Shown: positions 1-38,821, counted from the whole stretch's first letter. The stretch: 63,785 nt of DNA, filler included, from Hausera hauseri (GCA_046269625.1; 11 parts of 11 records of this genome joined end to end with filler, not necessarily neighbours in it); one strand, 5' to 3'. Program-made: numbers and translations. Notes: generated by a model from the sequence alone, not told the origin.

Positions 1-2
1 AA

Positions 3-998
3 ATCCTGAGCTAATAAACAATCATTTTGAATCATATCCTTATAAATTTGATATTGATTATTTACCATATAATGGAATAAATAATCTATTTTTCCGTTAT
101 AATAACTCATCGGTCTTACTTCTGTGGGATGTACGGTCTTCTGAGCGTTTTCTATTTCTATTTCTGAAACATAAATATTTTCCATATTAGTAGCAAAAAT
201 ATCTTCAACTCCACATCTAGTCACTTTTTCCTTTCGGATGAATCTTATAGAGTCTTCAATTTTCGTGGATATCATAATTGTTGGTGTGTCTATTTGTTCT
301 AATTTATCTTCCTCGTTTTCATTTCCAATGTTTCGTCGTGCAAACGGTGTACTGAGTCGTATTCCTCTGGTCACGTTAAATTTTACCTTTTTTAAAAAGG
401 CCAAATTACATTCAACCACCGGTGCAATCCAAGTAATAATTGAATCAGTAGTTCTACAGTACTCAGTGCCGTACTTACAATTTGTTTTGATCATCAATTG
501 TTTTGATTCCACATCGAATGAAATATCCTTTTCAATAATGGTTAATGTATACAGTGCTTGTACAACAACTCTTGCAACACCATCCACAGTGTTTCCATAA
601 CAATCTCCGTTAGCTGTAATAGACCCTTCCTCATTGATTGTATGATAATTTATAGCGTTTACGGCTGCTGCTATTTCGATTTTGTTATTTATTTTTAATT
701 TTCCTCTTTTTGCCGCATCTCTACATTGATCCATTGTTAATTCATGCGGTTCATTTGGGGTGGCCATTAAGATATTAGTTGAATGTCGATGTATTTTTCC
801 ACAGTGCCATTTCTTTATTTGCCTAGTTAGCTTACATTCTAGCGCTTTTACTCGTATGAATCTATTTTCTTGGTATATCCTGTAATTTTTAGTACCTTCG
901 AATATAAGTTTATCAGGCTCTGCATCTGGACATTTTTCTAGATCAACAAGGGAGTATGAAGCTCCAACCGCTGGATAATCGCAGTCATATGCTCGAAA
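3..998 (-). CDS. Chuvirus-type (class III fusion) glycoprotein ectodomain, N-terminal part
   Basis: FRAYDC..SYSLVDLEKC..LECKLTRQIKKWHCG..DQC..GSITANGDC..VVVQA..C..YC..W..C..RCG..YYNGKIDY..IYKDMIQNDC. Cys spacing and motifs match the Jingchuvirales G pattern as I know it. Preceded by the hydrophobic signal WLIILIIILCRGTHG (999-1043). Confidence 0.85.
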
Positions 999-3900
999 AC
1001 CATGAGTTCCTCGACACAGAATTATAATAAGTATAATTAACCATGTTAGATCATTAGTCCCTTGTCTAGGTAATGTACTACTAAGTAGCCTTTGTGCTTT
1101 AGTAAACAATTCAGAAAATTCATGTTCTCCATGACTATCTATTCTATATTCCTGTTCTGATATTTTACTTTCAGTCTTTTGAGGCTTATCAAAATTCAAC
1201 AAATCATTCCATCCTCCAATTCGATCTATATCTGGAGATATATGTGTTTTCAAAATTTCTATGACTACATCAAAACTACTCTCTCTTTCTTCAGTTGTAT
1301 CCGCCGAATTTTTAATTCTCATTGCTAAATATACTAAAATAGTGATAACTCTATCTTTTGTTAAACCTCCTGTCTTAATCCACTTTTGTATTATTTCACT
1401 ATCGTCTATAAGATCTATCCGTTCTGGTAATTGTTCATTTTTCACCGCAGTTTCTAATCGAACCAACGTTCGCTTTAAGTGATTTTCAATATCAAGAGTG
1501 AATGGCTCATCAATTAATAGGTCATTTTCTACTGGAAATAGGGAATTATAAATTCTCCATAAAATGGGTTTGATTTGCCTTGTTTCAAGATCCATTATTC
1601 GAATTTCACTTTTTCTTAGTGCTTTGGTTAAAGTATCAACTTTAACTTGCTCCCAAAGATTTTTCCTTGGACGACCTTGCGGTCTCTTATCAGTTTGTGT
1701 TGTTTCTTGTCTTGCTTGAAGCATATTTAATATATCTTTTACATTAGCTTCATTAATTAGATTTGATTGTTCTACTTCTTGTGAAATATCACCAATAACT
1801 TGGCTTGTTTGTTCATTCGGTCCTTCTGTCCGAACTGCCAATCCAGGAACTGATTGATCGATTTCCATTCTTTCTTGAGGAGCTGGTGTATGCATTTCAT
1901 CTTCAATATCCAGCCGTCGGATAGCTTCGTTTGATCCCAACACATTCTGTATACGCTGTTCTAGTTCTCTTTGCTTTAAGTTTTCGCTGTCTGTCCAATT
2001 TTCTAAGTGTACTGTAACAATTTCAGTTGGATCCATCCCATCCATAATTCCTAATTCTATCCATGGCCTTTCATAATTTAGGACAGTGCGACCCATAAAT
2101 GTCACTTGTTTTATTTGAATGTTCTCGTCGTCATATTGTAATCTTATCACTTCGATAGTTCCAATCATTGGTTCATCAACGTTTATAATAACTTGAAATT
2201 CACTAGTTTTATTTCTATATTTACCATATATATTTAGTTGAACTATTTCATTTTCCTCTAATCTTCTATCACTCATTCTTTTTTGATTATATCGTTGCAA
2301 TATCTCTTTTGCCATACTTGCTTCCAGTATGTGATCTGCGGCTTGTTTTACTAGAAACTTACGTATTCGAAGAAATCTTTCTCTATCTTCAATTAACCAA
2401 TTCATAATTCTATACATTTTATTCATAACAAGTGTGCAAACGTCCTCTTTATCACTGTTATTTAATAGCATAGTTAAATAATATTCAAACTGATCTTCTT
2501 CCGTTCGTATCTCTTCGATCTCCACCCCTGGGCCAAGCATCATAATTCGAGACATCTCTGTGGTATCTTTCCCTTTTTGGCTCTCGTCGCCGTAATTTTT
2601 ATCAAAAATATTTTTACCTTGCTTACTACCACCGACTATGGATTTGCCTTGACCTGTAAACCACGTATACATTCCTTGTATTCGTTTTGTTTTATCCATC
2701 TTTACTTTAGTACAATATTTTGATTTTTTTGACCGATTTTCGTATTTTGTTTTATCGGTGTAGACTTCTAAACCATTTTTATTTTCTTGACCTTTAGTCA
2801 ATACTGGTGATACATCTCTACTTATCATATGGTACGTATTTTCCTGTCGTACCTGATTAGTTGACTTCTCTTGAGTTGCCCTCAATCTTAGTTGTTTTTC
2901 TATTATTGAACCATCTACTCCATATCTCACTAACATCATCTTTTTATCAATTTTCTCATATTCTTCGTTTTCTTCATCTTTCTCCGATTGAATCCAGTTA
3001 TCCAAAAATACATGATATACCGAGCTATCCAATCGCTCTATTATTTCTCGCAATTTTATAAGTAAAACCATCGATATTTTCATTTCAAATCTTATATTTA
3101 ATTTACTAATACCCAGCATTCTTTTTACGCATTCAATCTCTACTTCACAAACATTATCAAATCCTCTTAAATATCGAATTCGTTTAACTTTTAATACACT
3201 AAGTTCTTTATTCATGGACACTTTGTTAAATTCATTTATCGTCTTAATTATTTCGTCAAAGCAATGACTACACTTATATCTTTGGAAAGAATTAATAGAT
3301 CGTCTGACCTTCAATCGTCTTTCTATTTCATTCTCCTCTTCTACTATATTTTCATTTAAGCCAAAACTTCCTGTCTTTAAAGTCTGTTTTAAATACGTTT
3401 CTAACTTCACTTTATTTATCTCAGTACTAGCTATATTTATGTGTGTCTCCGCATTCTCTTTAACTAATTTTGTTTCACTTACAATTTCACGATTCTGTAA
3501 GTCTACCTTTTTTGATAATTTTTCTGGGTCCTTCAATTTCTCTAGTCGTTTTCTTAAATCATGTCCCGATTCGTCTTTGGATTTTTCAGAATCTACTTTA
3601 TCTTCTTCTTTAATCATTAAACATTGCTTCTTAAATACATTTACTTCATTACAACCCATATTATCAGAATTTTCTAAGAAATTAACATCTATTTCCTTTA
3701 CATTATCATTCAATTTTATCCTTAATCCATCTGGTATACTCGCCTCTCCATTTATATCTGTCTCATTTATCTCATTAATTTCTGAACATCCATCATTAAT
3801 TTTTAGCCGGTTCAAGATTTGCAATTCATTACTCACTTCTATATTTTCGACTTTAATCTTCTCAATCTTTCGAGGTAGAGTTAGAATTTTAAGAGTCTCA

Positions 3901-5975
3901 ACACTCGACTCTTCCGTCAGCTCATTATCGCCCAACCTTTTACTGAATTCACTACAATTCCTAGAATCCGGTTCTACATCCGAATTAGATTGTATATCCA
4001 TTGAAAAATTGTCAATATTACATTCACTATTCAATATTACCGTGTTTAAGTCGAGTTCAGAACTCACATTCTCCTCACTTTCATTACTGGAATCAGTGGA
4101 CGGTGCCTTTAAATAATTTTCACTCAATTCATTTGCCATATAAATACATTCATGTTCCAACAGACTTTCAACATCCTTTATTTTTGACACTTCGGTCAGA
4201 TTTATTTCGACTGCATTTAATTCAGTACTTAGTTTATTTTCGTCTTGACAATACCAATTACTACAACTAGCTCCTTGTGGGTAACCGCCATATTTACTTA
4301 CAAACTTCTTTTCTTCAATTTCCCAAAATTTGAATACTTCATTATCAACATCATCATCCTGACTGATTTCTTCTGGGCAACCATATTCATGCATCATTTG
4401 TTTAATAGTTTTTATCTGTTCTGGATACTCTATTTTCCTACAATAACTATCACTCTTAGATTTTTCTTTTGATTTCTTATTCTTTACTCCAAACATACTA
4501 GCTTGATTTCCATGCAATACTTTTAACCTATCCAATTGAGTTCGCATCTCATCCCTTTCGGCTCTCAATTGTTTCAGTTCGAATTCTACATTTACACTAT
4601 TCGAATTTTGATAGTTTTCAACATTACTATCATAATTTCCTCTTGGATTCCATGTATTTTCATAACATTCCTGATTCTCATTGTCCCCCGATTCATTCAA
4701 TTGTGTCTGGAAATTTTGATTATTTTGCATAAGAGTTAGTTTATTATGGATTACCAACAATGGACATTTCTTCCAAACATGTCCTACTTGATTACAATGA
4801 TAACAAAATCTATTTTCATTCATCATACCTACCTGAGTTGGGCAGTTTCGGGCCACATGTCCCCACTGTGCACAAATATTGCACTGCTCAGGTTGTTGAA
4901 TATAAGGTGGCATTAATACCGGCGTTCTTTTTATTTCTGGGCAAGACTTGGCAATATGTCCAAATTTTTTACATTGGTTACACTGAATTGATCCTCTGTA
5001 ATTGACTTTGTCCCTTTCTAACGCCATTGCTTGTTGCTGTGTAGTTTGTGATCGGAGAGGATATCGTTTTTGTTGTTCTGGAGGGTTAATCCATTGTTTT
5101 CTATTCAAATTTGCTCCAGCGGCCATATCTTTAATAGGAGTACCCATTCTTTGTGGTTCTAGATTTGCCCTTATAGGTGGTTTTACAATATTTGGGTCGA
5201 TATTATGAAACAAATTTTGATTAATGTTCTGGTTAGTGCCTACATTCCAACGAGGCGGACCCCAACGCGGTATCGAAGGAACTTGCCAACCGGCCTGTCC
5301 ATAAGACCACGATGGAGTTCGCCACGCTTGGTTAGTCGGCCTAAAATTTCGATTTGGGTTTTGAAGTCTAGGGTTACTATTTAGGGTTTGGTTGTTATTA
5401 AATGAATTTTGATTGATTTGATTTAATTTATTCTCTACGTTTTCAAAATTTATTGCTTTTCTTATTAATTCACTCAAGGTGGAAACATCACTTTCGATCA
5501 ATTGTCTTTGAAGTTTGGGACTATTAAGTCCGGTGATAAAACAATCTATTAGAATTGGCTCTATAGCAAATATTTTAGGAGGACTCTTATCATCTTTATT
5601 TATTTCCTCTTTCTCTAAAGCTTCTTTGTATCGTTTACCTAGCAATTGTAAAGCAAATGCAAACTTATTAACTGATTCCCCAGGCAATTGCACTCTAGAA
5701 CGCAAACTTCTGAGTTTAGCACTAGACGATGGGTCAGGGTCTAGATTCCGTCGTAGTGTATCTACAAATTTATTCCAACTTAATTTCTCCTTCTCCTCAA
5801 TTTGTAAATAAGCCTGCAATGCTATCCCTTCAAGATGGGCAACTAAACGTTTGATTTTCTCTTTTTCATTCCACTCCAACCCATCTGCTTGTGCTGCGTA
5901 TACTAACATAAAATCGTCAAATTCAGACGGTTCACCTGAATACCTGCCTAAATTTAAATTAGCGAACGTAGACAT
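3..5975 (-). CDS. Gag-accessory-envelope polyprotein of a Gypsy-type LTR element (>=1991 aa, 3' end off-window; not in ORF track)
   Basis: Manual codon-by-codon check found no stop from ATG 5975 (frame open from 6113) to base 3. Capsid-like N-terminus (LGRYSGEPSEFDDF...W...KIKRLVAHLEGIA; MHR-like QLPGESVNKF) and three CX2CX4HX4C knuckles at 4764-4982. No D[ST]G protease, YxDD or DDE motifs seen. Confidence 0.9.
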   Translation of the reverse strand, partial: MSTFANLNLGRYSGEPSEFDDFMLVYAAQADGLEWNEKEKIKRLVAHLEGIALQAYLQIEEKEKLSWNKFVDTLRRNLDPDPSSSAKLRSLRSRVQLPGESVNKFAFALQLLGKRYKEALEKEEINKDDKSPPKIFAIEPILIDCFITGLNSPKLQRQLIESDVSTLSELIRKAINFENVENKLNQINQNSFNNNQTLNSNPRLQNPNRNFRPTNQAWRTPSWSYGQAGWQVPSIPRWGPPRWNVGTNQNINQNLFHNIDPNIVKPPIRANLEPQRMGTPIKDMAAGANLNRKQWINPPEQQKRYPLRSQTTQQQAMALERDKVNYRGSIQCNQCKKFGHIAKSCPEIKRTPVLMPPYIQQPEQCNICAQWGHVARNCPTQVGMMNENRFCYHCNQVGHVWKKCPLLVIHNKLTLMQNNQNFQTQLNESGDNENQECYENTWNPRGNYDSNVENYQNSNSVNVEFELKQLRAERDEMRTQLDRLKVLHGNQASMFGVKNKKSKEKSKSDSYCRKIEYPEQIKTIKQMMHEYGCPEEISQDDDVDNEVFKFWEIEEKKFVSKYGGYPQGASCSNWYCQDENKLSTELNAVEINLTEVSKIKDVESLLEHECIYMANELSENYLKAPSTDSSNESEENVSSELDLNTVILNSECNIDNFSMDIQSNSDVEPDSRNCSEFSKRLGDNELTEESSVETLKILTLPRKIEKIKVENIEVSNELQILNRLKINDGCSEINEINETDINGEASIPDGLRIKLNDNVKEIDVNFLENSDNMGCNEVNVFKKQCLMIKEEDKVDSEKSKDESGHDLRKRLEKLKDPEKLSKKVDLQNREIVSETKLVKENAETHINIASTEINKVKLETYLKQTLKTGSFGLNENIVEEENEIERRLKVRRSINSFQRYKCSHCFDEIIKTINEFNKVSMNKELSVLKVKRIRYLRGFDNVCEVEIECVKRMLGISKLNIRFEMKISMVLLIKLREIIERLDSSVYHVFLDNWIQSEKDEENEEYEKIDKKMMLVRYGVDGSIIEKQLRLRATQEKSTNQVRQENTYHMISRDVSPVLTKGQENKNGLEVYTDKTKYENRSKKSKYCTKVKMDKTKRIQGMYTWFTGQGKSIVGGSKQGKNIFDKNYGDESQKGKDTTEMSRIMMLGPGVEIEEIRTEEDQFEYYLTMLLNNSDKEDVCTLVMNKMYRIMNWLIEDRERFLRIRKFLVKQAADHILEASMAKEILQRYNQKRMSDRRLEENEIVQLNIYGKYRNKTSEFQVIINVDEPMIGTIEVIRLQYDDENIQIKQVTFMGRTVLNYERPWIELGIMDGMDPTEIVTVHLENWTDSENLKQRELEQRIQNVLGSNEAIRRLDIEDEMHTPAPQERMEIDQSVPGLAVRTEGPNEQTSQVIGDISQEVEQSNLINEANVKDILNMLQARQETTQTDKRPQGRPRKNLWEQVKVDTLTKALRKSEIRIMDLETRQIKPILWRIYNSLFPVENDLLIDEPFTLDIENHLKRTLVRLETAVKNEQLPERIDLIDDSEIIQKWIKTGGLTKDRVITILVYLAMRIKNSADTTEERESSFDVVIEILKTHISPDIDRIGGWNDLLNFDKPQKTESKISEQEYRIDSHGEHEFSELFTKAQRLLSSTLPRQGTNDLTWLIILIIILCRGTHGFRAYDCDYPAVGASYSLVDLEKCPDAEPDKLIFEGTKNYRIYQENRFIRVKALECKLTRQIKKWHCGKIHRHSTNILMATPNEPHELTMDQCRDAAKRGKLKINNKIEIAAAVNAINYHTINEEGSITANGDCYGNTVDGVARVVVQALYTLTIIEKDISFDVESKQLMIKTNCKYGTEYCRTTDSIITWIAPVVECNLAFLKKVKFNVTRGIRLSTPFARRNIGNENEEDKLEQIDTPTIMISTKIEDSIRFIRKEKVTRCGVEDIFATNMENIYVSEIEIENAQKTVHPTEVRPMSYYNGKIDYLFHYMVNNQYQIYKDMIQNDCLLAQD
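1197..1590 (-). other. Bcl-2-like domain within the polyprotein
   Basis: BH1-like KWIKTGGLTKDRVITILVYL and BH2-like ILKTHISPDIDRIGGWNDLL in correct order and spacing; upstream BH3-like IENHLKRTLVRLE. Confidence 0.65.
1662..1688 (-). other. AT-hook motif within the polyprotein
   Basis: KRPQGRPRK versus AT-hook consensus K/RPRGRPRK. Confidence 0.6.
2001..2250 (-). other. Ubiquitin/SUMO-like domain within the polyprotein
   Basis: VQLNIYGK..FQVIINVDEPM..VTFMGRTVLNYERPWIELGIMDG..IVTVHL resembles the beta-grasp pattern (FxGxxL..ELGxxDG..IxV); no C-terminal GG. Confidence 0.5.
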
Positions 5976-6197
5976 TTTCTGTTCTTCGAGTTGGTTATAA
6001 TTTTCCTCTAATTCAATAGATTCTTGCTCGAAAACTTTTCTCCTAAAATTTTCTTTAACTAAAACCTTTTCCTGGTATCCTTCCAGACTCACCCTTGAAA
6101 ATTTCTTATAGTCTTATGATCAGAAACTATTTGTACGAATGCTACTCAACGAAATTTTCTGTGTCTAATTTTATAGTCTAGTTTTAATGAGATCAGG

Positions 6198-6215
6198 GTC
6201 CTGGCGTGGTCGCCA
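6198..6215 (-). promoter_or_regulatory. Primer-binding site complementary to a tRNA-Arg 3' end
   Basis: Minus strand TGGCGACCACGCCAGGAC, a few nt after ...AAACA and 220 nt before the gag ATG. TGGCGACC is the tRNA-Arg PBS start known from mdg1/412-type Gypsy elements. Confidence 0.85.
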
Positions 6216-6220
6216 AAATT

Positions 6221-6829
6221 TGTTTGTTTATACGTTATTTTATCACTACCCCGCTCCCAGATTAAATTGTTATGATTTACTTGATTTAACTCTAATTAAT
6301 TTTCCCCCTTTTTTCTTTTTTTAACTACTATGATTTTCGTATTCTTTATCACGTAATTTCCACTTTAACACAAACCTTCTTCAAGGCTTTTATCCCCTTG
6401 CTTTTTCTATCGTTATTTATTAATATCCAAACGAACTGGCTAAAGTGCTCCGAACCCGATTGAGATCAGACAAACTAAAATGACTACGATAGTGTAGGCC
6501 CACAAAAAAACAACTAGGTATGATTTTATCAAAATCAACAAGGAGTTTATCAATCACGAGTAGAAAATTGTGGCAATTTAACAAATCGTCCACAATTTTC
6601 TAACTACACACAGACGATTTTTTTCAAGCACAATATTTAGGGCCTTAGTTTACTTTCTTTCTTTCTAAGAAAGGAAATATGACAATTAAAGTATAATAAT
6701 AAAAAAATTAAGAAAAATTACCACCCACTTGAAAGTAATTTGTTTATTTCTTCTCTTTTTCTATTCCCCAAAAGTCGAAACTCTACAAGCTCGATTGACC
6801 ATCAACGTCGGTTAAGATTTTAAATAACA
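6221..6829 (-). repeat. Putative LTR (~609 bp)
   Basis: Minus strand starts TGTTATTT right after a purine tract and ends AAACA just before the PBS (TGTT...AACA inverted termini). No second copy is in the window, so the 5' boundary is inferred. Confidence 0.6.
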
Positions 6830-6842
6830 TTCTCCCGTTTTC
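6830..6842 (-). promoter_or_regulatory. Putative polypurine tract
   Basis: Minus strand GAAAACGGGAGAA directly before TG. Confidence 0.55.
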
Positions 6843-7173
6843 ATAAATAAGATAACTCGATGATTCTTCCTTTATTTTTTGTCAGTCTTTCTATTTCTAC
6901 TTTGTATATATATATTACTAATTAAAAAAAATGTTAACAATGTGTCTCATGCAATTGTCTTGAAAATTGCTATACAGTGAAATAATCAACCATCTCCACA
7001 GTTCCCATAACAGGAACTGTGCCTCTGAGGCAATCAGATTTACAATAAAAGAAATTTAATGAGAATATTTAATTATTGCCTCAGAGGTAATCAAATTTAC
7101 AATACAATCAGATCTACAACACAAGAGGGGGGACAAAAAAATATCGTCTTCCACTGGCGATAAAAGGTACAGT

Positions 7174-9057
7174 TCATGGTGAATCTAATACGATTTGATC
7201 AGTCCATGATGAAAAGTCGTCAAATAATGAGCGAGTGGGTGTTGGTGTAGGAATGGGTTTCTGAGGGCTTCCGATGGGTAACAAAGTATCTGTATCTGAA
7301 ATATCACCTGATTTTGATTGGGTTGGTATTGTGGAAGTAGGAAAAGTGGTTACATCTGTGCATAATAAGGGGTTAGTGATATTTGTAGTTTGAGATATCT
7401 GAAAGGTTTTTTTTGCTTGGTAATGGAAGGAATTGAGTGGTAAAGATTGCATAGCGGGGCTATCAGCATCTGTCGGTACGCGAAGAGGTGGTAAGAAAAG
7501 ATCTGAGGTAGGGTTTTCGAGGAAAGAAAAGTGTTCCCAATTACATTGTGGGATTGAGGATAGGGGTTTATACGGTAGTGTATTTGCCAAGTCAGATAGG
7601 GCTTGTGGACGCCATGGGGGTAAAAGCCAGTTAAATCGTCGTCTTTCTTTGTAGATGTCATGGACAATAAATATCATGTATTCAGCGTCCATTTTACTTG
7701 GTATAAAGTAATCAGTCGATTTGTATATGGCAGGAAAAGGTTTAAAGCCATTTTGACTATAGTTGAGGTCTATATACCCTAGTAATAGCTTGGCTGAAAG
7801 ATGCCAAAGGTTCAGGAAGTAGAGTGGGTCGAAAGTAACCAATATTCTGCCATATATGGCACGTTGAACATGGGCTCTACAGAGGGCGAAATCTGGTGCA
7901 TGATCAACATCATCTAAAGATATACTATGACAATGTTTATCCACATTATCAATTTTTTCTCTAGGGCAAACAAATGTCTTGTATTTTATGTTAAGTGGTC
8001 CATCTGGATCGGTACTAAGATCACCCAAGTAAATATGAATTACTACAGGAAGACTGCCTGAAAATGCCACGGCGTAGCCGGCGAAAATAATTTCCTGAAT
8101 AGGGTACGGATAGGGTGTTCGAACATAAGAATGTGGGATAGGATTCGGGGGTTGGGGTAGCCAGTCAAGTTCATTTAGGGGCACTTGTCCATTAATTGAT
8201 GTATCCAAATAACGGCGCCAAGGTGGAATATCCACATATTCTAGTTCTATATACGTAACCGAATTCTCTCTCATTAGGATGGTAAAGGAATGTGAACTCC
8301 AGACATCTGCTGTCAAAAGAATAGATTTGAACGAAGATAAGTATACTTTAAATATGGGTAGGGGTGGTCTGTGGATCTCTAATACAACAGATCCTTTAAT
8401 AACAGATAAAAGCATATCTTTTGGTTGTAGTGGAAAATTCTGAATGGAAAATTGTTGGTCTAAGATTTGTCGCATGGGGAATGGCCCATAATTGTGTGAC
8501 CAATAAGAAATCAATATACAGCGATCTTGCAGGCTATTACTTTTGAATTTATTAGGGATTGTGAACACAGAAGGATATTTAAGTGTAATGTTGCGAAATA
8601 ATGTATCAAAACGTACCGAGCGATATGTGGATCTAGAACGTAAAATTTCAAAAAGGAAAGGAATAGATGATCCCTTTGGCAAAAAAATGGGAATGCGTGG
8701 CATTTGTTGCAAGTTGGCAAATTGGATACTTTGCCCGATATTACGGATTGGTGGGGCATACATTAAAAAATAGGAGGTATTAGAATAAGACGTAGAAGCG
8801 AGGGGTAAGAGAAGTAAGGGAGGGTGAATTGTATCCATAGTTTGTTCAACGGATGCTTCACCACTTTCGATGCGGATAGTAGACTGCACATAGGTTGATC
8901 TCTGGAGCGGTATTGATGTCATACGGAGATATCTAACTTCACTGATGCAATAAGTCACTGAGATCACCTTGATGCTTGAGTGATCTAAAAAAGTAAAGTG
9001 GGTGTTAGACCACTGTGCCCAAGCCTGAAAACAATAGGCCGTGGCCGACTTTAATTG
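7174..9057 (-). CDS. Unknown Pro-rich 627-codon domain, probably expressed by stop-codon readthrough
   Basis: Track ORF 7174-8967 is in frame with ORF 9058-9393 and open up to its TGA; context TGA CAA TTA. Confidence 0.7.
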   Translation of the reverse strand, partial: QLKSATAYCFQAWAQWSNTHFTFLDHSSIKVISVTYCISEVRYLRMTSIPLQRSTYVQSTIRIESGEASVEQTMDTIHPPLLLLPLASTSYSNTSYFLMYAPPIRNIGQSIQFANLQQMPRIPIFLPKGSSIPFLFEILRSRSTYRSVRFDTLFRNITLKYPSVFTIPNKFKSNSLQDRCILISYWSHNYGPFPMRQILDQQFSIQNFPLQPKDMLLSVIKGSVVLEIHRPPLPIFKVYLSSFKSILLTADVWSSHSFTILMRENSVTYIELEYVDIPPWRRYLDTSINGQVPLNELDWLPQPPNPIPHSYVRTPYPYPIQEIIFAGYAVAFSGSLPVVIHIYLGDLSTDPDGPLNIKYKTFVCPREKIDNVDKHCHSISLDDVDHAPDFALCRAHVQRAIYGRILVTFDPLYFLNLWHLSAKLLLGYIDLNYSQNGFKPFPAIYKSTDYFIPSKMDAEYMIFIVHDIYKERRRFNWLLPPWRPQALSDLANTLPYKPLSSIPQCNWEHFSFLENPTSDLFLPPLRVPTDADSPAMQSLPLNSFHYQAKKTFQISQTTNITNPLLCTDVTTFPTSTIPTQSKSGDISDTDTLLPIGSPQKPIPTPTPTRSLFDDFSSWTDQIVLDSP

Positions 9058-9350
9058 TCATAAGATAGTTGTATAAACACCATCGGTTTGCCTATTCACA
9101 ATCTCGTCGGGCACAAAATAATTCAAATTAAAGTTAATATCATATTGTGGTATATTTTCATATTCGTTTAGGTACTCTGCATAAAATGTCTTATTGGATC
9201 TCTTAAGATACACGGCAAGTGAACAGCATATTATGATTGCTATACCTGAAATAATAATTACAACCACCCATGTATAGAAGAGAGGGAATGAATTTTGTTT
9301 AGATTTCACAAATGCACTAGTTGTTGAGGCCGGTATACGTGAAAAAAAAA
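9058..9350 (-). CDS. Transmembrane anchor and cytoplasmic tail of the integrase-fused glycoprotein (frameshifted at a T9 run)
   Basis: WVVVIIISGIAIIICCSLAVYL followed by KRSNK and Tyr motifs YENI/YTTI; overlaps the end of the upstream ORF at the homopolymer 9342-9350. Confidence 0.65.
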
Positions 9351-11746
9351 TAAAAGGTAAATTTTTGTTTCCAATTTGAAAAATTTGTTTCAAATAATAT
9401 GGGTTTTTCCAACGGTTTGGGAATTACAAGACGTGTTGTATTGCGTTCATGCGCTGCTGACTCAGACAAGGATTGGTTTGGTGTAAAGTTAACTGTTGTA
9501 GTTAAAGGGTCCATTTTTGTAGGGACAATTCGTGAGTCCAACGTAATGACTTTTGGTCTTATGTGTGGAGGTGAATTAAATGAGAATAAATGTTTTAAGT
9601 TCAGCGTCGTGTTAATTATAGGTTGACGTGATGAGTTTACCAAGATTGCGAACTGAATCCGACATACAGAGGGTCGAAAATGGATATCTTCTTTCTTTAT
9701 TACTACAAGCCGAGGTGAAGACGGTCCCACGGACACCAGCCAATGTTTTCCTATGTATATAGCTTCCAATACTGGAGGGTTCCACCGTGTTCGTAAAACA
9801 TCAATATAAGAATAGGGGATTGCTTTCCACAAAAATGATCCCAATGTAAATAAAGGTTGAACAGGGGGAATCAACCAATCGTGTATGAAATATATGTTTG
9901 TCTCGGATATTGGAATGGTAATTCTGACCCATGTCGGTTTATTATAATATATTGGAAAACGTGGTAAATCAAGGGATAATTTTGGAACAATAGTCCGTCT
10001 AGTAAAATTTAGTCTAATTCCTTCAATCTGTACTAAAACTCCGGATTGTCCTTCAGTCCATAAGTACTGATAAACCAAGAATGGTTCTCTGAAGATCCGA
10101 AACGAAGGTGTTTGTAAAGGTGGCGTTTCCCACCTGTCGACTATTGTCGTTGAACCTTGGTCAAAGAAGGCGAAAGTTTGTTGCACTGTGGGCTTGTCCA
10201 CAGGATAAAAACATGCTCCGCCAGGTGACTCAATTGTACATAGGCCAAGAAATTCTACTGACCGGTTATCCCAAATATGAAATATTAAAACTTTAACAGT
10301 GTTAGTCGTCTGAGGAATATTTGTGTGTAAATAAGTTATCTGGTTTTGATGTCTCCAACCCATATATATTGCTGGTCGACATTCGTAATTTCCTAAGCAG
10401 TGAAGTATGGTAAAAAGGAAAGTTGCGTATAGAATACGACTTTCAAATAATGTAGAGCAAATTGGTTGAGTAGGATCTGTTACTTTTGTTTTATCTTTCT
10501 TTTCATCTTCCGGTTGTTTTATTTCTGGATCTTTACTTTTCGATATGGGCGGAGAAGTCAATTTGCACCATTCTGCTGCTAGACAAACAATTTCATTACG
10601 TTTGCCTACTTTCTTTTTAATAAAAATATTGTTATCTGTAACTCGTTCAACCTGATAAGGTCCTTTCCATGGACGAGTTAGTTTGGGTGATAGACCTTTC
10701 TTTGTTACATGGTCGTAAACCATTATCCAATCATCTACTTGAATTTTATGGGGTCTGGCATGTTTATCATATTGCTTTTTATATTGTTTTTGGTAGTCCA
10801 ATGTTAGTGACTGAGCTAAAGCCCAAGCCTTCGTTAATCTTTCCTTTAGATAGTTTACATAATCTGGTTCACTTTTTGCCAATGCTTCCTTTGGTATAAA
10901 TTCTAAATCTATGGGTAGTAATGGTTCTCTTCCATACATCAAATAGAATGGAGATTCATGCGTTGCTGTGTGTGGCGCAGATCTCAAAGCGAACATACAG
11001 GCTGGGATAAATAGATCCCAATCATCTTGTCGATCGTTTGTTACTGTTGCCAGCATTGACAATAGTGTCCCATTTAATTTTTCTACCATTCCATCTGTTT
11101 GTGGGTGATATGCAGCGGTTTTAAGTTTGTATATAGTAAATAGTCTGCACACTTCTTCAAACATGTGATTTATGAATTCTCTTCCTTGATCTGTTAATGT
11201 TTTTCGTGGAGCACCATACCGAAAAACTATTTCTTCAACAAACAAAGCTGCAACAGTAAATGCCGTCTTATCAGGCATTGGAAAGGCTTCCGGAAATCGT
11301 GTCAAATAATCAATGAATACTAGTATATATTGGTTGCCACTTTGTGTTTTATGTAATGGACCGACAATATCCATTGCAGTAAATTCCATTGGTCTTGCTG
11401 GTGGTGTTATAGGGTGTAATTGCGGTTTACTGCGTAGTCCTCTAGCTCGTCTAGTTGCACAGATTTGACAATCTTTACACCATTGTTCCACATCCTGCTG
11501 AACAGTTCTCCAATAATATTTTGTTTTGATTCTTCCTAACGTTTTTTTGAAAGCCGGATGACACGCCAACATTCCATCATGTTCTTGGTGTAGTATGTCT
11601 TTTCGTTTTTCCAATGGTATTACAATTAGTTGTTTATTACGGTGCCAATATCTTACTAGATCATTAATAATAAGATAGTGTGATCCTTGATTTAATAAAT
11701 GGTGCATCAAGGCTTTCTCTTCCGTATTAATTTTCTTTGTTCTCAA
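9317..11746 (-). CDS. Gypsy/Ty3 integrase with ~370-aa glycoprotein-like C-terminal extension (pol 3' end; 5' part frameshifted and truncated by contig end)
   Basis: HHCC (H..HP..C..C), MDIVGP, DYLTRF, TDQGREF, YHPQTDGMVE, WKGPY; then hydrophobic ILYATFLFTILHCLG (10391-10435) and several N-X-S/T sequons. Confidence 0.9.
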   Translation of the reverse strand: MRTKKINTEEKALMHHLLNQGSHYLIINDLVRYWHRNKQLIVIPLEKRKDILHQEHDGMLACHPAFKKTLGRIKTKYYWRTVQQDVEQWCKDCQICATRRARGLRSKPQLHPITPPARPMEFTAMDIVGPLHKTQSGNQYILVFIDYLTRFPEAFPMPDKTAFTVAALFVEEIVFRYGAPRKTLTDQGREFINHMFEEVCRLFTIYKLKTAAYHPQTDGMVEKLNGTLLSMLATVTNDRQDDWDLFIPACMFALRSAPHTATHESPFYLMYGREPLLPIDLEFIPKEALAKSEPDYVNYLKERLTKAWALAQSLTLDYQKQYKKQYDKHARPHKIQVDDWIMVYDHVTKKGLSPKLTRPWKGPYQVERVTDNNIFIKKKVGKRNEIVCLAAEWCKLTSPPISKSKDPEIKQPEDEKKDKTKVTDPTQPICSTLFESRILYATFLFTILHCLGNYECRPAIYMGWRHQNQITYLHTNIPQTTNTVKVLIFHIWDNRSVEFLGLCTIESPGGACFYPVDKPTVQQTFAFFDQGSTTIVDRWETPPLQTPSFRIFREPFLVYQYLWTEGQSGVLVQIEGIRLNFTRRTIVPKLSLDLPRFPIYYNKPTWVRITIPISETNIYFIHDWLIPPVQPLFTLGSFLWKAIPYSYIDVLRTRWNPPVLEAIYIGKHWLVSVGPSSPRLVVIKKEDIHFRPSVCRIQFAILVNSSRQPIINTTLNLKHLFSFNSPPHIRPKVITLDSRIVPTKMDPLTTTVNFTPNQSLSESAAHERNTTRLVIPKPLEKPILFETNFSNWKQKFTFYFFFTYTGLNN

Positions 11747-11909
11747 ATTCTCTGATTATTTGTAATTCTGGATCCTTTTCCTGTAAACATATTAATTTCT
11801 AAATATCGGTCTCAGTCAATTGATTATCGTGTAAATCTTTATGAAATATTAACATTTGAGAAACATGAATTTGTTTACATTCAGTTTCGAGATTTTCTAA
11901 TTCTTGTTT

Positions 11910-12009
11910 NNNNNNNNNNNNNNNNNNNNNNNNNNNNNNNNNNNNNNNNNNNNTTAATTAATTAANNNNNNNNNNNNNNNNNNNNNNNNNNNNNNNNNNN
12001 NNNNNNNNN
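11910..12009. other. Artificial contig linker (also 16419-16518, 20766-20865, 25000-25099, 29829-29928, 35734-35833, 40151-40250, 45156-45255, 50081-50180, 58127-58226)
   Basis: Identical N44-TTAATTAATTAA-N44 with stops in all six frames. Confidence 0.98.
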
Positions 12010-13109
12010 TATCGAGAACAATGTCGTATTGGTTAATGTAAACATACGCCTCTGAGTATATTGGATCCGAAAATCCCGTTAACTGCATCATATCATGTAG
12101 AAGAATCGATTTTTTAACAAGATTAACTAAAACGATTTGAAAATCAGGCTTCGACAACAGAGGTTTTAAAAGCTGAAGTTTGTGTTGGATGTCATCAAAT
12201 CTAGTGGACTTGATAAAATACGTGGAAAGATTATTCAACTGAATTGGAGCTTTGTACAGATTCACAGAAGAATACTTTTCAATTAACGAGCTAAATACGT
12301 CGACGGATTCAAAACAAAATGCGTGTAAAATACAACACTTTATTAACACATCTCTGTCCAACATCGAGTTTTTTGAAAATACATCTATAACGTTTGTGTG
12401 TGACTTTGTGTCGAGAGAGTTTAATAAAATTTCTATACCGCGACTAACAAGAATTTCGAAAAACTGGTAAGAATCAATTTTCAACAGGCAATAATTGATG
12501 ATTTCGGAAATACTTTTAACAGGTTGTTCTGAATAGCGTCCATTGATGAGTAGATTTTTCACAACCTTTCTATTAACTGTCATGTCGGAAAATTGAATAA
12601 CTTCATGAGCAGCTTTAAGAAGATTATCTAATGGACCAATACAAATTAAAAGATATTGCCTGAATGATGCATCAGGTGACTTGTATAGCAAATTGTGAAG
12701 TATTGGAAAAGGAGGATTCAACATAGAAATTCGGGAAATCATTGATTCCAAATTTTCTTTATCCAATTTACAGTTGATAGAAGGAAGCAATATGTCTACA
12801 GCATCAAACAAGTGCCTCCGAGCAAGTTTGAAAACGGTAATTGCAGCAACATTTTGATCTTTGAAAGGTTTGAGTTTTGAAAGCATCAAAGAAAGTAAAT
12901 CTTTCGATGCGCCACTATGAGCCAATTCGACATAACAGTCATAATCATACAATTGATAATTTTTTTGATCAACACATTTCTCAAAAGCAATCTTTAATAT
13001 TCCTGAACACTTATTAACATCGAAGATTGAAGCATATGACATAGCGAGGAAAGCGTAATCCTGATAGCGCAACGCAATTTTATTCTGTTTCCTGATATCA
13101 GAGTATCGC
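12010..13109 (-). CDS. Unknown helical region, C-terminal part of the chimeric ORF (truncated at contig end)
   Basis: Open in frame with the ferlin part; no motif recognised. Confidence 0.5.
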
Positions 13110-14125
13110 TCAATTTCGTCTTGTGACCAAAAATGCTCTTTCTTTCGAATAACCATCATATTCTCGACAGGAAGATAGCTAAACAGAAAAACAAATCTCC
13201 AATTGAAATTTCCTTCTCCATCCAGGGATCTGTAATGAACATCCGTTTCTTGCTTTTCATCAATACCAGCCAACCATCCCTTAACATAAATATCCGACAT
13301 TTTCTCACCTAACAAATTTTCCTCTTCTAAAATAACGTCTTTCGTATTCCAAACAATAATACGTAATTCATATTGTCTAGCTTTCCGTTGAGTTATGTCA
13401 AATGGCGATCCAAGGTTTTCTATTGCACGTGGAAATATATCGATCCAACATAATAATTTTCCTTGTTCAATTCCTGGTTGTAAAGGGCTGTAAAGTGGCC
13501 TTGTTTCAACATGTTCCTTAGTTAATTGAAACAAGTTTAAAACGTAAAGAGCAAGTCGTTCTTTACTTGGACCGTAATGAGGATTGCTTTTATGCTTTTC
13601 AAACGAAGAAAGTTTAAACTGACGTTGACCAATGCATAACGTTTCGTCATCTTTGAACGTTGGTGGTGGAATGAAATTGTTTTCACAGAAGGTTGTTAAT
13701 ATTTCAAGAGGCTTAAAACAGTCCCTCCATTGATTTGGTCCGTTAATGCAATACGTTTGGGGGATACCACAAGTTGCGCGGAATTTCGTTAGTAAACGAT
13801 TTTCTAAGTCAATTGATGTCTCACCAATAACGTCATCAGTGCTCATTGAATCATAATCTTTAATTCTGATGTATAGATCTTTACTTATTGGAATTGTACA
13901 TTTGATTTCAAACATTCTGCCGAATTCGGGACACAAACAATTTGGTATATAATTGTATTTGTTACTTACGATTTTCTTACCAAGTTGAACTTCAACGTAT
14001 GGATCAGACAGTCTACTTGGGTCATTAGGTTGAAGTTCAACCGCTTTTACAACATATACACGTACAACACATTCAATTGGTTGTGTAGATGGTAAACCTC
14101 TTTCAAGATATTTTGGCGGCAACTT
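13110..14125 (-). CDS. Ferlin C2E and partial C2F region, middle of the chimeric ORF
   Basis: VRVYVVKAVELQPND..DPY, DDVIGETSIDLENR, EHVETRPLYSPLQPGIEQG, YELRIIVWNT, MSDIYVKGW, QETDVHYRSLDGEGNFNWRF. Confidence 0.92.
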
Positions 14126-14294
14126 ATATTCACATCCACTAAATCTAAACATTACATGCCGTTGAACATGTATTCTGTAACCAAACACTCTCTTAATCTT
14201 TGGCTGGAGCATTAGTAAAAGAAAAGAAATAAATTCATTGCGTATACATCCACAAATTTCAGTTAATTTTTGTCTCAAATTATTATGGAATTCA

Positions 14295-16369
14295 GGACTT
14301 AAATTTTTAATTCCAGCATTGATGATACTTGTATAATCACTGCCTTTGGGAAGAGCATATGCATAAAAATATTGATCGAAACCATTCGTTACGGTGATAC
14401 ATGGTGTACCAATGCTGAGTTTCAAAATTGAATCATGATAGATGAATGCAACATATTGACTTTTGATCAAGGCTAATCCATCATTAGAATTATTCACATA
14501 TAAGCCCTTTGTACCCCCTTGCAACTCTGCAGCCAGCTGTTGAACATAATCGTAGGGAGGCTGTTTCAAGAACTGGGTAACAGATGACTGATTCACTGTG
14601 CATGATTTATAAGTGGTTTGTTTTTGGAAATCTTCAAGTGTTGTTATGGCTGATTGCAACCGTAAATTAGTTCGAATTGCACCATAAACTGCAACGTATG
14701 ACAACAGAACAATAATATTAAATATCCACCAAAATACAGCAAGGATTCGTCCGGAAGGTCTGTCGGGTAAAGCAGTGGTTACACCTTGAACAAGTGACCC
14801 GACAAAAAATAAAATTGAGTCTTTAATTCCAAATGATGCTCTATTTGGACTCAGTAAATTGATTAGCGTCAAAACTACTGAGTAGACAATGGTACTTAAT
14901 ATTATTATTACCCACACGAGCCAGTTGAAAACAAGAATAAAATTGAACATTGTTTCATAATTGCTTTTGGTTACTTGTTTGTAGACTATTGCAAGTTTGT
15001 ATGCTTTGAACGTATCGGTCATATCGATATACGGAAGATATGACTTAAAGTACGTAATAGGTCCAACGACAATATCAGCTTGCCCATTTTGTGCTATTAA
15101 AAGTATACCATTTAACTGATTGTTGATTAGCATTCCAGGAAAAGTATTGTAATAAGTTATATTGTATGAAACATTTAAGTTATTCAATATTTGTTCGATC
15201 ATTTCAATACTGTAACCAGGTTTAGTACTGTTTGGAATGACGAACGGATTTTCCACGAGCGCAGCTATTCTGAATGGTACTGCTCTCATTATCTTTAAAA
15301 TATTAGCCGTCGTAGGTTGAAATAAAGGTAGAGTTGGTTGATTGACTGTTACATTACCATTAAGAGTTGCCTCTACATTGCCAACTTGTTGGAAGGAATT
15401 GTTAAAAATGTATACATTTACACCCCATGTTTTCCTGTAAATTGCACTGGTATTAAATGTTAAAATTCCGGTTGATAATGTAACATCTCCTGGTAATGGC
15501 GCATTACATGCATCATAGTCAAGCAGGCGTATCAAAGAATAAGCAATATCACTCAAAATCATATCCCTTTCCCCTACAAGTCTGAGGGAACCGTTGAAGT
15601 TTGATGCACATGTTTGACAGAAATCATATGCAGTAAAGTTATTTGAGAAAAACACGTTCAGTCCAATTTGTTGGTAATTTGTGGCAAATCCGCTGTAAAA
15701 GACGAGCCAACGATATTTCCAATTCAACACTCTCCTTTTATCACAGATCGAAATAAGCTCTACTGTTTCATTGAAATTTAAGTCCGTTGCGATATTTTTT
15801 ATAGATCCGGTTTGTAAAATTGTTGCAATTTGCTCGGCTGTTGAAGAATTGTAATATTGAATGATTTTTATGGCGCCGCTGAATGTACCAAAATAGGCCA
15901 ATGGATTGAATACTCTCCACGGTGTTAAGCTGTCAACGATCCCTGCGTCAATAACAATGATAATTGTTTTGTTTACGTCATTGGCCAACATGTTATTCAT
16001 AACTGATGTGACGTTTTCGACTTTGACGTCGTAAACAAATGGCACAAACTTACATAAATCAGCATAGTCGTCTGATGAAATTTCATTAATCAATGCTGTT
16101 AAAAAAATTTTATAGTCGAATAGAAGTTTACATAGTGGGACAATGGGGCAGTGAATAAAAGCAACAGAAGGGAAAAAACGGTGACTTAAACAAAAACTGC
16201 GGTATGCTTTAAAATCAACAGAGAGACTTACCAAATCATTCCAAAACGAGTCAAACAAAATCGCGAATATGTGTCCATTGTATAATGTCTCATTATTTAG
16301 CCAAAATTTCTGACACCATTTGTTGTTCTTTGCTTTAGTAGACTGGAATTCGACTGAATCTTGCGACAA
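14295..16369 (-). CDS. Divergent ionotropic glutamate receptor-like region (ATD-S1-M1-P-M3-S2, no M4), N-terminal part of a chimeric ORF
   Basis: ENPFV, GYSIEMI, ADIVVGPIT, M1 FNWLVWVIIILS, pore DSILFFVGSLVQG, SGRILAVFWW..SY, YAYALPKGS. Confidence 0.85.
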
Positions 16370-16518
16370 AATAATAAACGGGTTAAATATAATTAATTTA
16401 ACCTCGATTTGTTGGTGCNNNNNNNNNNNNNNNNNNNNNNNNNNNNNNNNNNNNNNNNNNNNTTAATTAATTAANNNNNNNNNNNNNNNNNNNNNNNNNN
16501 NNNNNNNNNNNNNNNNNN

Positions 16519-23235: not shown

Positions 23236-24631
23236 TTAGATGTCAATATTATGAAACAAGGCACGCAGATAGTCCTTAAGATCACGCCCTGCATATTTAG
23301 AAAGAAATGCAGCAAGACGTCTTGATAGTTGAGCGTATTTAGACTTTCTGGTAATTCCGCTCTGTATACGACTGATGGTTTGTTCTGTTAAGTCTTGTTC
23401 ACGACGGAAATGATCAACCAATATGTGAATAGTAGGATATTGGCACGCGACAGACGATTGGAACGCGTTATACCAACCCTCTGAGTTATTTGTTCGCGGC
23501 AAGTCATCAGCAACACGTCCTCGCATGTTCCACATGGTGATAGGAAACAACGGGTTGGCTCGTCGATTGCGTCTCAAGCAACCAACATAATTGTTTATCT
23601 AGTAATCATAAACATTTTTGAGATTATCGGGTCTACTCGCTCAGTTCATCGAAAGCGGACCCAATATACTCCAGAGGAACGAAACTCAGTGCAATTAGCA
23701 TCTTTGAATACATTTTAATGTTCTCGTTGTCGCGATACAAATGAGATAAACCTTTGTTTTGTATTCTACACTATAATGACTGATCAAGTTGAAACAGACA
23801 ACCAAGTACGATAGCATTTAGAAGTACAGTAGACAGTGCGTTCATACCTCCTTGCTCAAAATCGATCAGAATGTTAATAGGCGTGAGATTGTCATAGTTC
23901 TGGCACTTTCCGGAAAACCCGATCATAGTTAGGTCGTGTTTTTGTTCCCATGAGCACATTAATGGAATTGAGCGATTCTCAATTAAAGCATGTATGGTAA
24001 ATACCTGTAGAAATATCTTGGGAGCTACCTTGAATGTTCCGTCCATAAAGCAGTGCAGATATTGCTCCAAAAATTACAAATTTGCTGCAGTGCCGAACAT
24101 GGAGATTCTGTTTGTGTCTTGATTACTCGAATCCCAGAGAAGCAAATTTTCAGAAAGTGTTGTTACCTTCATAGTATCCGGGAGAATGATGTCTTTAATA
24201 GAATCTGGCCTCGGACTGGTGACATAAGGTGCCTTTCGTTTCCGCTCGACAGTACGTTGGCTTGTCGAATACGACGGCAAAAGATGGGTTGCTTCCAGCG
24301 AGACTGCTGCTGTGCTGTTCAAAATAATTTGACGAGGTTTTTCCACTCCATTTTCAGCTTGTTCGCGTATAGTCGCCTTCATTTTCTCGCTTTTATTTTT
24401 TGCGATATTTGGTGCGTGCATATGTTCAGTACTTGTTTGTAACGTCTCGTCTGTTTTCTTACGTCTGCCGGCACTCTTAACGCACCTCCACGAAGACGAT
24501 CCATCTTTATTTACCTTGTCGCATCGATATCGATAACTTTCATACAGCAGTTGTTGTTTTCCTTTCGGTGACCTAATAATATCCATGTAGTATTTTACTG
24601 ATTGTGTTGTGTTGATGTTTTGTCGTCCCAA
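23236..24631 (-). mobile_element. MULE (Mutator-like) transposase pseudogene with N-terminal FLYWCH
   Basis: KGKQQLLYESYRY..WRC, MDGTFKVAP..QVFTIHA, IDFE, GCLF, RTNN..EGW; stops and frameshifts. Confidence 0.9.
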
Positions 24632-24999
24632 TAAATATCCATCTAATATTGCACTAATTGTGTTTTGTTGATGTTTTCTTGACCTAATAAATATTCATGT
24701 AATAGTTGACTAATTGTTTTTTGTTGATGTTTTGTCGACCTAATAAATATCCATCTAATATTTTACTAATTGTGTTGTGTTGATGTTTTGTCGACTAATA
24801 AATATCCATCTAATATTGCAGTAATTGTGTTTTGTTGAAGTTTTGTCGACCTAATAATATCCATCTAATATTTTACTAATTGTGTTGTGTTGATGTTTTG
24901 TCGACCTAATAAATATCCATCAAATATTTGACTAATTGTGTTTTGTTGATGTTTTGTCGACCTAATAAATATCCATCTAATATTTGACTAATTGTGTTT
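24575..24999. repeat. ~59-bp tandem repeat, ~7 copies
   Basis: Unit taataaatatccatctaatattttactaattgtgttttgttgatgttttgtcgacc. Confidence 0.9.
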
Positions 25000-28000: not shown

Positions 28001-29828
28001 CCACCTCAAGACATGCTTAATTCTTTAAAGTCTTGCACAATTGTTGACGGCGTGACTTTAGACATTTCCAAACCAGGTTATTCCGTAATAATTCTCGCAC
28101 CATCATTGCAAAGGCGAGAATTTAATAGCGTACATTCGCTACACCACCCTGATGCTAAAGCCACTTTTTGTTTACTCCATCGACAAGTAATATGGCAGTC
28201 AATGCGTTCTTATGTGCAGGCGTGGGTTAAAGAGTGTGTGGATTGCCGAAAATTCAAAACAACTAAACATTTAAAGACACCATTGTTCCACTTCCCCTGC
28301 ACATTGCGTTTCGACATCATTGGCCCTTTTCCTCCAGACAGAGGTTATCAATTCATTCTCACCATGATGAATCGTTCCTCGCGATGGCCAGAAGCCATCC
28401 CTCTGCGCAGCACGAACACAGATACCATAGCTGACGTTTTCATTCGTACATGGATTAGCAGGTTTGGATCACCTCGTTTTATCGTCACGGAATAGGGTCC
28501 ACACTTTGAATCCAACCTGTTCAAATCCCTTGTTAACCGATTGGGGTTCCATTACATGCATACTACGCCTTACCATCCCCAATCGAATGGCCTTCTAGAA
28601 CGCTTCAACCGAACATTGAAAACGTCACTAGGAATTGTTGCATCGTCCAACACTAGTTGGACGAATCTTCTTCCGTTTGTTCTGCTTGGCTGGCTGAACA
28701 CTCCGTCTACTTCTACGGGATGCTCACCTACTGAAGCCTTATTCGGAGCTCCTGTACGATCATTGTTCGAACCAACTGCTTTACACGACACTCCTACAGA
28801 TGAAACGACACGGACGGCGCGAAATCCCTTCGTTACGGTCAGCAAAGATTCGCTCTGTAGGATACTTCACAAAGACAAAACATATTTACCCGAAGACTTG
28901 TATTCGACAAAATTCGTATGGCTAAAAAATCAAACACCGTGCAGTTTTCAGCCGCGGTATCTGGGGCCCTATAAACTGATATAGCTGCATTCATATCATG
29001 CTATTATCTCTAAAGACGGCAAAGAACTTACAGTACATATTACCAACTTAAAGTCCGCCTTCTTTGTCGACGACACTTTACCAATGGACACGTCAACCTC
29101 TTTCCTCACTCCTACACTTCCTACTCTTCCTTTATCTGTTGCTACATCAGTTTAACCTCCTCCTTCTGCTTCTAGTTCTACTTCATCATTCTCCACACCT
29201 TTTACTTTTATTTCTATCTCTTTTCCTTTTTCTACCACTCCCGCTGTGTCATTTTCTACTTCTACTCTTCCGCCTAACAGAATTCCAATTTCTACTTCAA
29301 TTTCCGTTTCTCGTCCTTCATCTTCTAACACTGTCTTGAATACCTTTAACCGTCCATTTTCAACAATGTCTCTTCTTCCTTCACCTTCTTCTTCTCTTCA
29401 TTTTGACTCGTCTTTGCACAACACAACATTCACTACAAAATCTGACAATTTTTTCCCTAACTTCAACCTCTGCAAGCAAACACATCCCATAAAGACAACA
29501 TATGCAGAGTCATATTTAGCAAGTATAGCAGGGAAAAATCAGTAGAATGCACCAAACGTCTTGCTTACACTAAGACCAATTGACACAGGCTCTTTTTGTT
29601 TAGCGATTTTTTCTTTCCGTCTATTTTGATTTTTATAGTTTTCACTTTGCCACGGAGGTGATGTGGTGCCCACGATGGCCGGTGCCCATTGGCCTATTTG
29701 GTCGGGCGCGGCAGGGCGTCCGTTGCCGCCTCGTCGGGCTCATAGTCGGGTCCGATCTTCCGCCTCTAAATCGACTGTCAAGAAAAACACGTACTATAAA
29801 TGATCGTACTCAACAATGTCCTTCGATG
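25100..29828 (+). mobile_element. Decayed CsRN1-like Gypsy LTR retrotransposon (gag-PR-RT-RH-IN, PPT, partial 3' LTR from 29662)
   Basis: CHCC-type gag fingers, FLIDTGA, RPCGD, DDILI, YSTFDREL, DIIGP, YHPQSNGLLER, RYLGPY; many stops and frameshifts. Confidence 0.9.
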
Positions 29829-38775: not shown

Positions 38776-38821
38776 TTTATGTTACAGTCGCCTTTACATT
38801 CCCAAATTTCCTGACACCCTA

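Follow-up and report, generated by a model that had tools for sequence, protein, structure and literature searches.

The glycoprotein-coding stretch at the start of the window (the whole 63,785-nucleotide stretch that we analysed, a series of contigs with N spacers between them, of which the first spans 1-11909) is very probably the part of a multi-copy Ty3/Gypsy LTR element that encodes Env. A single frame of this element encodes Gag, a long linker, a domain with a predicted Bcl-2 fold, an internal signal and then a glycoprotein of class III, G. As we read it, the element is likely Burro-like, with an env inherited from an old Gag-Env-Pol lineage and with Pol likely following Env; we favored this over a fresh capture because the same layout has already been described for the flatworm Burro elements. 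All features discussed here are on the minus strand, where a stop-free frame of 2037 codons (6113-3) runs off the contig, the longest frame seen in 200 shuffles being 137 codons. Counted from its first Met, the Gag-linker-Bcl-2-Env polyprotein frame covers 3-5975 and has not closed where the contig ends. The glycoprotein region under study makes up the last 347 codons of the 2037. Read along the minus strand, the integrase frame comes first (11755-9317), then a short frame that carries a transmembrane segment (9423-9058) and a frame of 627 codons (9057-7174); after ~950 bases without coding sequence come the primer site (6215-6199) and the 2037-codon frame (6113-3). From these visible parts we estimated a rough element size of ~16 kb.

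Translation of positions 3-1043 meets no stop and gives, in order, a hydrophobic stretch, FRAYDC and a cysteine-rich domain; the region codes for the N-terminal half of a chuvirus/herpes gB-type glycoprotein of class III. The glycoprotein itself (3-1001, cut by the contig end) matched Pfam PF24664 (Monjiviricetes_fusion) with an E-value of 3e-25 and 88.7 bits (cut-off 27), and all 11 cysteines of the mature G were conserved in at least 90% of 50 aligned homologs. An AlphaFold2 model of G (pLDDT 88.4) had chu-like virus G proteins as its best Foldseek matches among viral models (E-value 5e-20), and when compared with 48,161 solved chains it was led by HSV-1 gB (Z 9.7, rmsd 7.5, 247 residues aligned), the top 12 rows all being class III fusogens, their domains or antibody complexes. 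By sequence, a 50-row G profile reached herpesvirus gB weakly (best E-value 0.0027), and a single-sequence PDB search with G returned nothing relevant. The first-pass annotation had proposed a signal peptide followed by FRAYDC and a chuvirus-type G with the typical cysteine pattern, and had suggested profile and structural comparisons as a check; these results bear it out. About half of G is present in the window, with its C-terminal anchor beyond the contig end; in full-length relatives a hydrophobic segment follows G. No other part of the polyprotein is as hydrophobic as the putative internal signal of Env (1002-1052), which would be cleaved before FRAYDC. This signal lacks a start codon (the nearest Met is ~90 codons upstream) and has a hydrophobic counterpart ahead of G in all 16 of the relatives examined.

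A search with G of 1.84 billion representatives gave 170 matches at E-values up to 0.001. The best were long proteins with G inside them, with Gag before it and/or protease, RT, RNase H and integrase after it (P0009, P0010, P0012, P0019, P0023, P0024 and P0154); eight retroelement polyproteins matched with E-values of 1e-49 to 1e-40 and 31-35% identity, while the named chuvirus G proteins P0046 and P0091 matched at 4e-9 and 6e-6. Wherever a relative was long enough, Env continued into protease or RT, and the Pol order protease, RT, RNase H, integrase held in P0009, P0010, P0019, P0024 and P0154. Searches for the relatives' DNA loci found none in viral contigs, none in metagenome contigs with a single protein query and one, L001, with an alignment; L001 is a metagenome contig that carries Gag, Env, protease, RT, RNase H and integrase as a single 2693-codon frame. 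The other relatives are known only as protein sequences, which show neither LTRs nor stop contexts. A word-based search for longer G homologs recovered none among 1553 candidates.

At the other end of the frame, the capsid region of Gag (5394-5843, residues 91-240 of the 2037) had weak matches to Retrotrans_gag (E-value 6.8e-5) and Ty3_capsid (6.2e-4), both below the curated cut-off, and was followed by three CCHC zinc knuckles (4764-4982) found by a motif scan (zf-CCHC E-value 2.4e-9). Pfam returned no BEL/Pao family for Gag at E-values up to 10, which agrees with the first-pass assignment of the element to Gypsy rather than BEL/Pao. The same annotation had G fused in frame to Gag; the two do share one frame, but ~1240 residues separate the knuckles from the Env signal, so G is not directly fused to Gag. 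This linker contains an AT-hook-like GRPR motif (1662-1682), which also occurs upstream of G in P0006, P0010, P0011, P0012 and P0154 and which was not significant in Pfam (E-value 8.4, in the relative P0011), and a candidate ubiquitin-like domain (2016-2267), a short motif that aligns with a weak ubiquitin match of P0011 (E-value 0.031) and for which direct searches with the window gave no significant match. A motif and hydropathy scan of the 2037 residues found no protease or RT motif. Upstream, 240 bases before the Gag ATG, there is a tRNA-Arg-type primer binding site (6199-6215) that differs at one of 12 bases from the tRNA-Arg(UCG/UCU) ends given in supplement 1 of PMC13524379, in agreement with the tRNA-Arg type proposed earlier; 17 identical bases occur in L001, there 36 bases before the first ATG. 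A putative single LTR (6221-6829) was delimited by eye from TGTTA after a purine run to CA five bases before the primer site, and no second LTR copy was found within the window, which also contains no target-site duplication, no RT and no joint between Env and Pol.

The element appears to be a multi-copy family, as 4346 contigs of sequencing run X1, possibly the run from which the window itself derives, aligned to 1-6600, most of them less than 99% alike. A contig from a second study covered 919-1127, the joint of linker, signal and G, with one difference, and for this reason we do not regard the joint as an assembly chimera. Indels among copies were mostly frame-preserving: none of the nine listed fell before position 2766, and the two X1 indels in the in-frame region were of three bases each. 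Some low-depth single contigs skipped parts of the Gag-Env frame, and contigs of both X1 and the second study extended past the 1-6600 stretch. Eighteen of the 40 variable sites covered (another 892 lie beyond these) were at third codon positions (p 0.08), which gives no firm sign of selection.

The domain just upstream of the signal (1185-1601), shared by the window and six relatives, is predicted to fold like Bcl-2. A seven-row profile of these sequences, chosen partly by eye, matched Bcl-xL with an E-value of 4.5e-6, and all 60 of the profile matches listed were Bcl-2 family proteins or fusions of them. The predicted model of the region (pLDDT 68.5) aligned to Bcl-2 proteins over 133 residues with an rmsd of 3.5 and a Z of 12.3, a value close to the level reached by chance in helical bundles; the first 31 rows were all of the Bcl-2 fold, and the first unrelated row had a Z of 5.9. 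Foldseek also pointed to the Bcl-2 fold, weakly (E-value 3e-3). The window sequence by itself had no Pfam or PDB match in this region, the ESM Atlas gave no usable match for it, and a search of 1430 candidates with the Bcl-2 profile recovered only the profile's own two short rows. The BH2-like GGW motif is kept, and the degenerate BH1 (NWGR) keeps its basic residue and loses its glycine; because that glycine is not kept, BH3 binding is uncertain. Several other relatives have no Bcl-2 domain ahead of G. Searches of the literature under general terms found nothing relevant on a Bcl-2-like domain in LTR elements, Burro apart. The first-pass annotation had overlooked both this domain and the integrase half upstream.

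In that half, a Ty3/Gypsy integrase with H2C2, rve and GPY domains by Pfam (9317-11755) continues in frame into a weakly hydrophobic stretch (10391-10438) and ~350 residues of no known family. Named homologs that bore a family name were labeled Gypsy, Ty3-G, 17.6, Tf2 or K02A2.6, and neither Pfam nor these labels yielded BEL/Pao-type integrase or Gag domains. Among 127 homologs the closest were P0180, P0154, P0010, P0181, P0155 and P0009, and a tree of 128 rows placed the window in a nine-row clade (support 98) with the Env-bearing P0154, P0010 and P0009; the other three Env-bearing rows formed a neighboring group, with weak support for joining the two. Since the integrase belongs to the Env lineage, the contig probably represents a single element whose two halves meet at its LTR, and 7174-11909 would be the 3' end either of this element or of a sister copy. 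The integrase half of this copy is broken: no frame is open between the contig end and the integrase, each of the three being interrupted by stops, and the short frame that overlaps the end of the integrase frame (9058-9423) carries its transmembrane segment (hydropathy 3.44) and tail in a different frame from the preceding ectodomain-like stretch. A signal and an anchor follow the integrase in one frame in L001, P0009, P0010 and P0154, and P0019 has the signal with a weaker anchor; the window's own post-integrase signal scored 1.88, under the threshold of 1.9. The relatives' post-integrase tails gave no alignment with that of the window and mostly none with each other.

After the window's own anchor comes the stop UGA CAA UUA, and in frame behind the UGA lies the 627-codon open frame (7174-9057), which is of no known family, had no Pfam or PDB match and compares with a longest frame of 178 codons in 300 shuffles. 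The stop fits the readthrough motif CARYYA (PMC4132726), a context that follows 12 of the 6813 stop triplets in the window. Because we came upon this context in hindsight and in a copy that is broken, and because the L001 stop does not have it, decay seems as likely as recoding here. By eye the same stop also seemed to carry an FN3 motif, which we dropped when neither Pfam nor PDB supported it.

For the phylogeny of G, 100 of 152 sequences passed a coverage filter and were used with FastTree, and 34 hand-picked rows were used with IQ-TREE; the trees were unrooted, with no outgroup and with two named chuviruses sampled. FastTree placed the window in a 25-row clade (support 99) with the polyproteins, and in IQ-TREE it shared a clade of 16 rows (100/99) with every one of the 11 polyprotein rows, while Sanya chuvirus 1, Tacheng tick virus 4 and the named insect copies lay outside that clade. 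Neither tree grouped the window's G with the two named chuvirus G proteins, and forcing it together with the chuvirus and insect G proteins cost 38.6 log-likelihood units (p-AU 0.010, for a group named after the tree had been seen). The first-pass annotation had inferred that a Gypsy lineage captured a chuvirus G independently, and had called for such a phylogeny; that a capture of this kind took place fairly recently, with fusion to Gag, now seems quite unlikely to us. In its favor, the best viral structural matches are chu-like G proteins and named chuvirus G proteins occur among the sequence matches, and with no outgroup in the trees the whole retroelement clade may stem from one ancient viral capture. 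Against it, the polyproteins have far better E-values than the named chuvirus G proteins, and the window nests within their clade, the constrained tree being rejected for the two named chuviruses sampled. In these trees G lies inside an old clade of Gag-Env-Pol retroelement polyproteins, and a new chuvirus-to-Gypsy capture is not supported; the trees are silent on the direction of the first gene transfer, being unrooted and including only two named chuviruses.

We also considered that the Gag-Bcl-2-Env frame might be a non-autonomous or defective element with no Pol of its own, the integrase coming from a different, related neighbor, and we regard this as unlikely. The missing protease and RT motifs would fit it, as would a broken integrase half next to an intact Gag-Env half and a single LTR with inferred bounds, the contig alignment having covered 1-6600; however, the contig ends with the frame unclosed and about half of G read, which would put Pol outside our view, contigs of both runs reach past the aligned stretch, relatives that are long enough go on into protease or RT, and the integrase falls in the same lineage as Env. 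An assignment to BEL/Pao would bring the element into line with the BEL/Pao elements with chuvirus-like G noted in the available text of PMC13524379. We find it hardly credible, given a Gag that matches Retrotrans_gag and Ty3_capsid with no BEL/Pao family at E-values up to 10, and an integrase with H2C2, rve and GPY whose named homologs are Gypsy, Ty3-G, 17.6, Tf2 and K02A2.6.

If the element is Burro-like in the way we propose, its genomic RNA, primed by tRNA-Arg, would be translated into one polyprotein, of which Gag, the linker and the Bcl-2 domain would remain cytosolic; the internal signal would direct G into the ER, and signal peptidase would cleave ahead of FRAYDC. The C-terminal anchor of G, present in relatives, would then stop transfer, leaving protease, RT, RNase H and integrase back in the cytosol, and the element's protease would process the polyprotein. 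The cut signal could leave the Bcl-2 domain tethered to the membrane like a tail-anchored Bcl-2 protein, where it might damp apoptosis in the producing cell, and trimeric G would fuse the membranes of an enveloped particle and its target. A bolder version, which we offer tentatively and consider rather doubtful, would make these elements infectious Ty3/Gypsy viruses with an envelope, whose polyprotein yields two surface proteins: a class III fusogen before Pol and, after integrase, a second membrane protein, variable in sequence among relatives, as its attachment partner. The Bcl-2 domain would then be anchored by the Env signal and, here, readthrough of UGA-CAA-UUA would add a 627-residue extension.

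On this evidence the Burro layout of Gag, Bcl-2, in-frame class III Env and Pol would extend to a larger family, many of whose members stand without a name in public assemblies. A form about half the size of Burro would offer easier test cases for questions left open in PMC6431247, as far as its available text goes: whether infectious particles are made, and whether the Bcl-2 domain blocks host cell death. Should the second membrane protein serve in attachment, fusion and attachment would be divided between two proteins of one retroelement, which would add something genuinely new. The second signal-plus-anchor protein behind the integrase, seen in relatives, and the UGA-CAA-UUA stop ahead of the 627-codon frame are possibly undescribed; the available description of Burro (PMC6431247) mentions no second membrane protein in that position, nor is such a two-protein arrangement described in the available text of PMC13524379.

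Among known systems the closest in layout is Burro/GYPSM1, giant planarian Ty3/Gypsy elements that, in the available parts of PMC6431247 (Arkhipova and Yushenova 2019), are described as having Gag, three CCHC knuckles, Smc, MATH, Ubi/SUMO and BCL2 domains, an in-frame Env with matches to mononegavirus fusion glycoproteins, and then Pol, and are presented as the first case of an in-frame env between gag and pol. The window has in common with them a retrotrans_gag domain with three CCHC knuckles, a long linker, a BCL2-like domain (by prediction) directly before Env and an in-frame Env; the protease and Pol that follow Env in Burro are seen in relatives of the window. The cargo listed for Burro in the same text includes Smc, MATH, BIR, ankyrin and dUTPase. 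The window's linker has none of these at Pfam E-values up to 10, and an ankyrin match occurs in P0154 after Env, a part that the window lacks. Where Burro is reported to have a ubiquitin/SUMO-like domain before BCL2, the window has the motif common to P0011, with no significant match, and Burro is given as more than 30 kb, about twice the ~16 kb estimated here. The element is therefore likely Burro-like, a kinship by architecture and not by tree or sequence, and we have filed it as Burro-like rather than as Burro because what we compared was architecture, not size, RT kinship or host.

Other elements share parts of this layout. As far as the available text of PMC13524379 (Chary and Hayashi 2026) goes, a gB-type Env linked to Chuviridae G occurs in many Gypsy elements, and HSV/gB-type errantiviruses of Platyhelminthes, Nematoda and Bryozoa have the order GAG-ENV-POL; these are like the window's lineage in having a Ty3/Gypsy Pol and a gB-type Env between Gag and Pol. 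The same text makes no mention of Burro, Bcl, a polyprotein or an in-frame fusion, and in its table all ten Arg_UCG_UCU elements carry an F-type Env, whereas that of the window is gB-type. Gypsy fragments beside chuvirus-type glycoproteins have been noted as well (PMC10084718, Dezordi 2023, in the part available), and Troyka (PMC12440569, likewise available in part) was set aside as a comparison. The named insect and chuvirus G proteins fall in a separate clade from the window's G. Mosquito BEL/Pao elements with a chuvirus G, reportedly the subject of work by Dezordi in 2020, have the same glycoprotein family in an LTR element of a different superfamily. Finally, the predicted fold of the Bcl-2-like domain is that of viral Bcl-2 proteins such as ASFV A179L, KSHV Bcl-2, iridovirus GIV66 and adintovirus Bcl2; unlike these, the window's domain is part of a retroelement polyprotein and has a degenerate BH1, and in place of a tail anchor it has the Env signal ~45 residues downstream.

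Among the protein relatives recovered in homologue searches with the glycoprotein G of the Burro-like element, six (P0154, P0010, P0012, P0008, P0006 and P0023) each carried at least two aspartic-protease motifs. P0154, which is 4844 residues long, had five such motifs, together with ankyrin and C2H2 matches and one more internal signal. Another of these relatives, P0009 (HBK71150.1), and a relative of the window's integrase, P0180, are eukaryote-type Gypsy polyproteins filed under bacterial MAG names (Flavobacteriaceae, Turicibacter); these labels probably reflect binning contamination.

Elsewhere in the window we saw a minus-strand frame of ~1500 codons without stops (11954-16462), which was an intronless join of unrelated host-gene pieces, namely from an ionotropic glutamate receptor, ferlin C2 and dsrm domains and the C-terminus of coatomer beta. 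This frame may represent a retroposed mRNA mosaic, or else an assembly chimera. Three contigs had stretches in common (25693-28680, 47584-48769 and 58769-61758) that were 65-77% identical with their order kept, and these are probably decayed retroelements related to one another. One contig of the window has a tandem repeat at its end (24554-24999), with a period of 56 bases, and diverged repeat units recur about every 106 bases in an array at 37107-38776.

In the element contig, a short palindromic and repeated segment (7015-7100), noticed by eye, sits in the non-coding stretch that follows a 627-codon frame. This frame, which had no match in Pfam or the PDB, is an in-frame extension separated from a transmembrane frame by UGA-CAA-UUA (9052-9060, minus strand), a stop codon and downstream sequence that fit the CARYYA readthrough context (PMC4132726).
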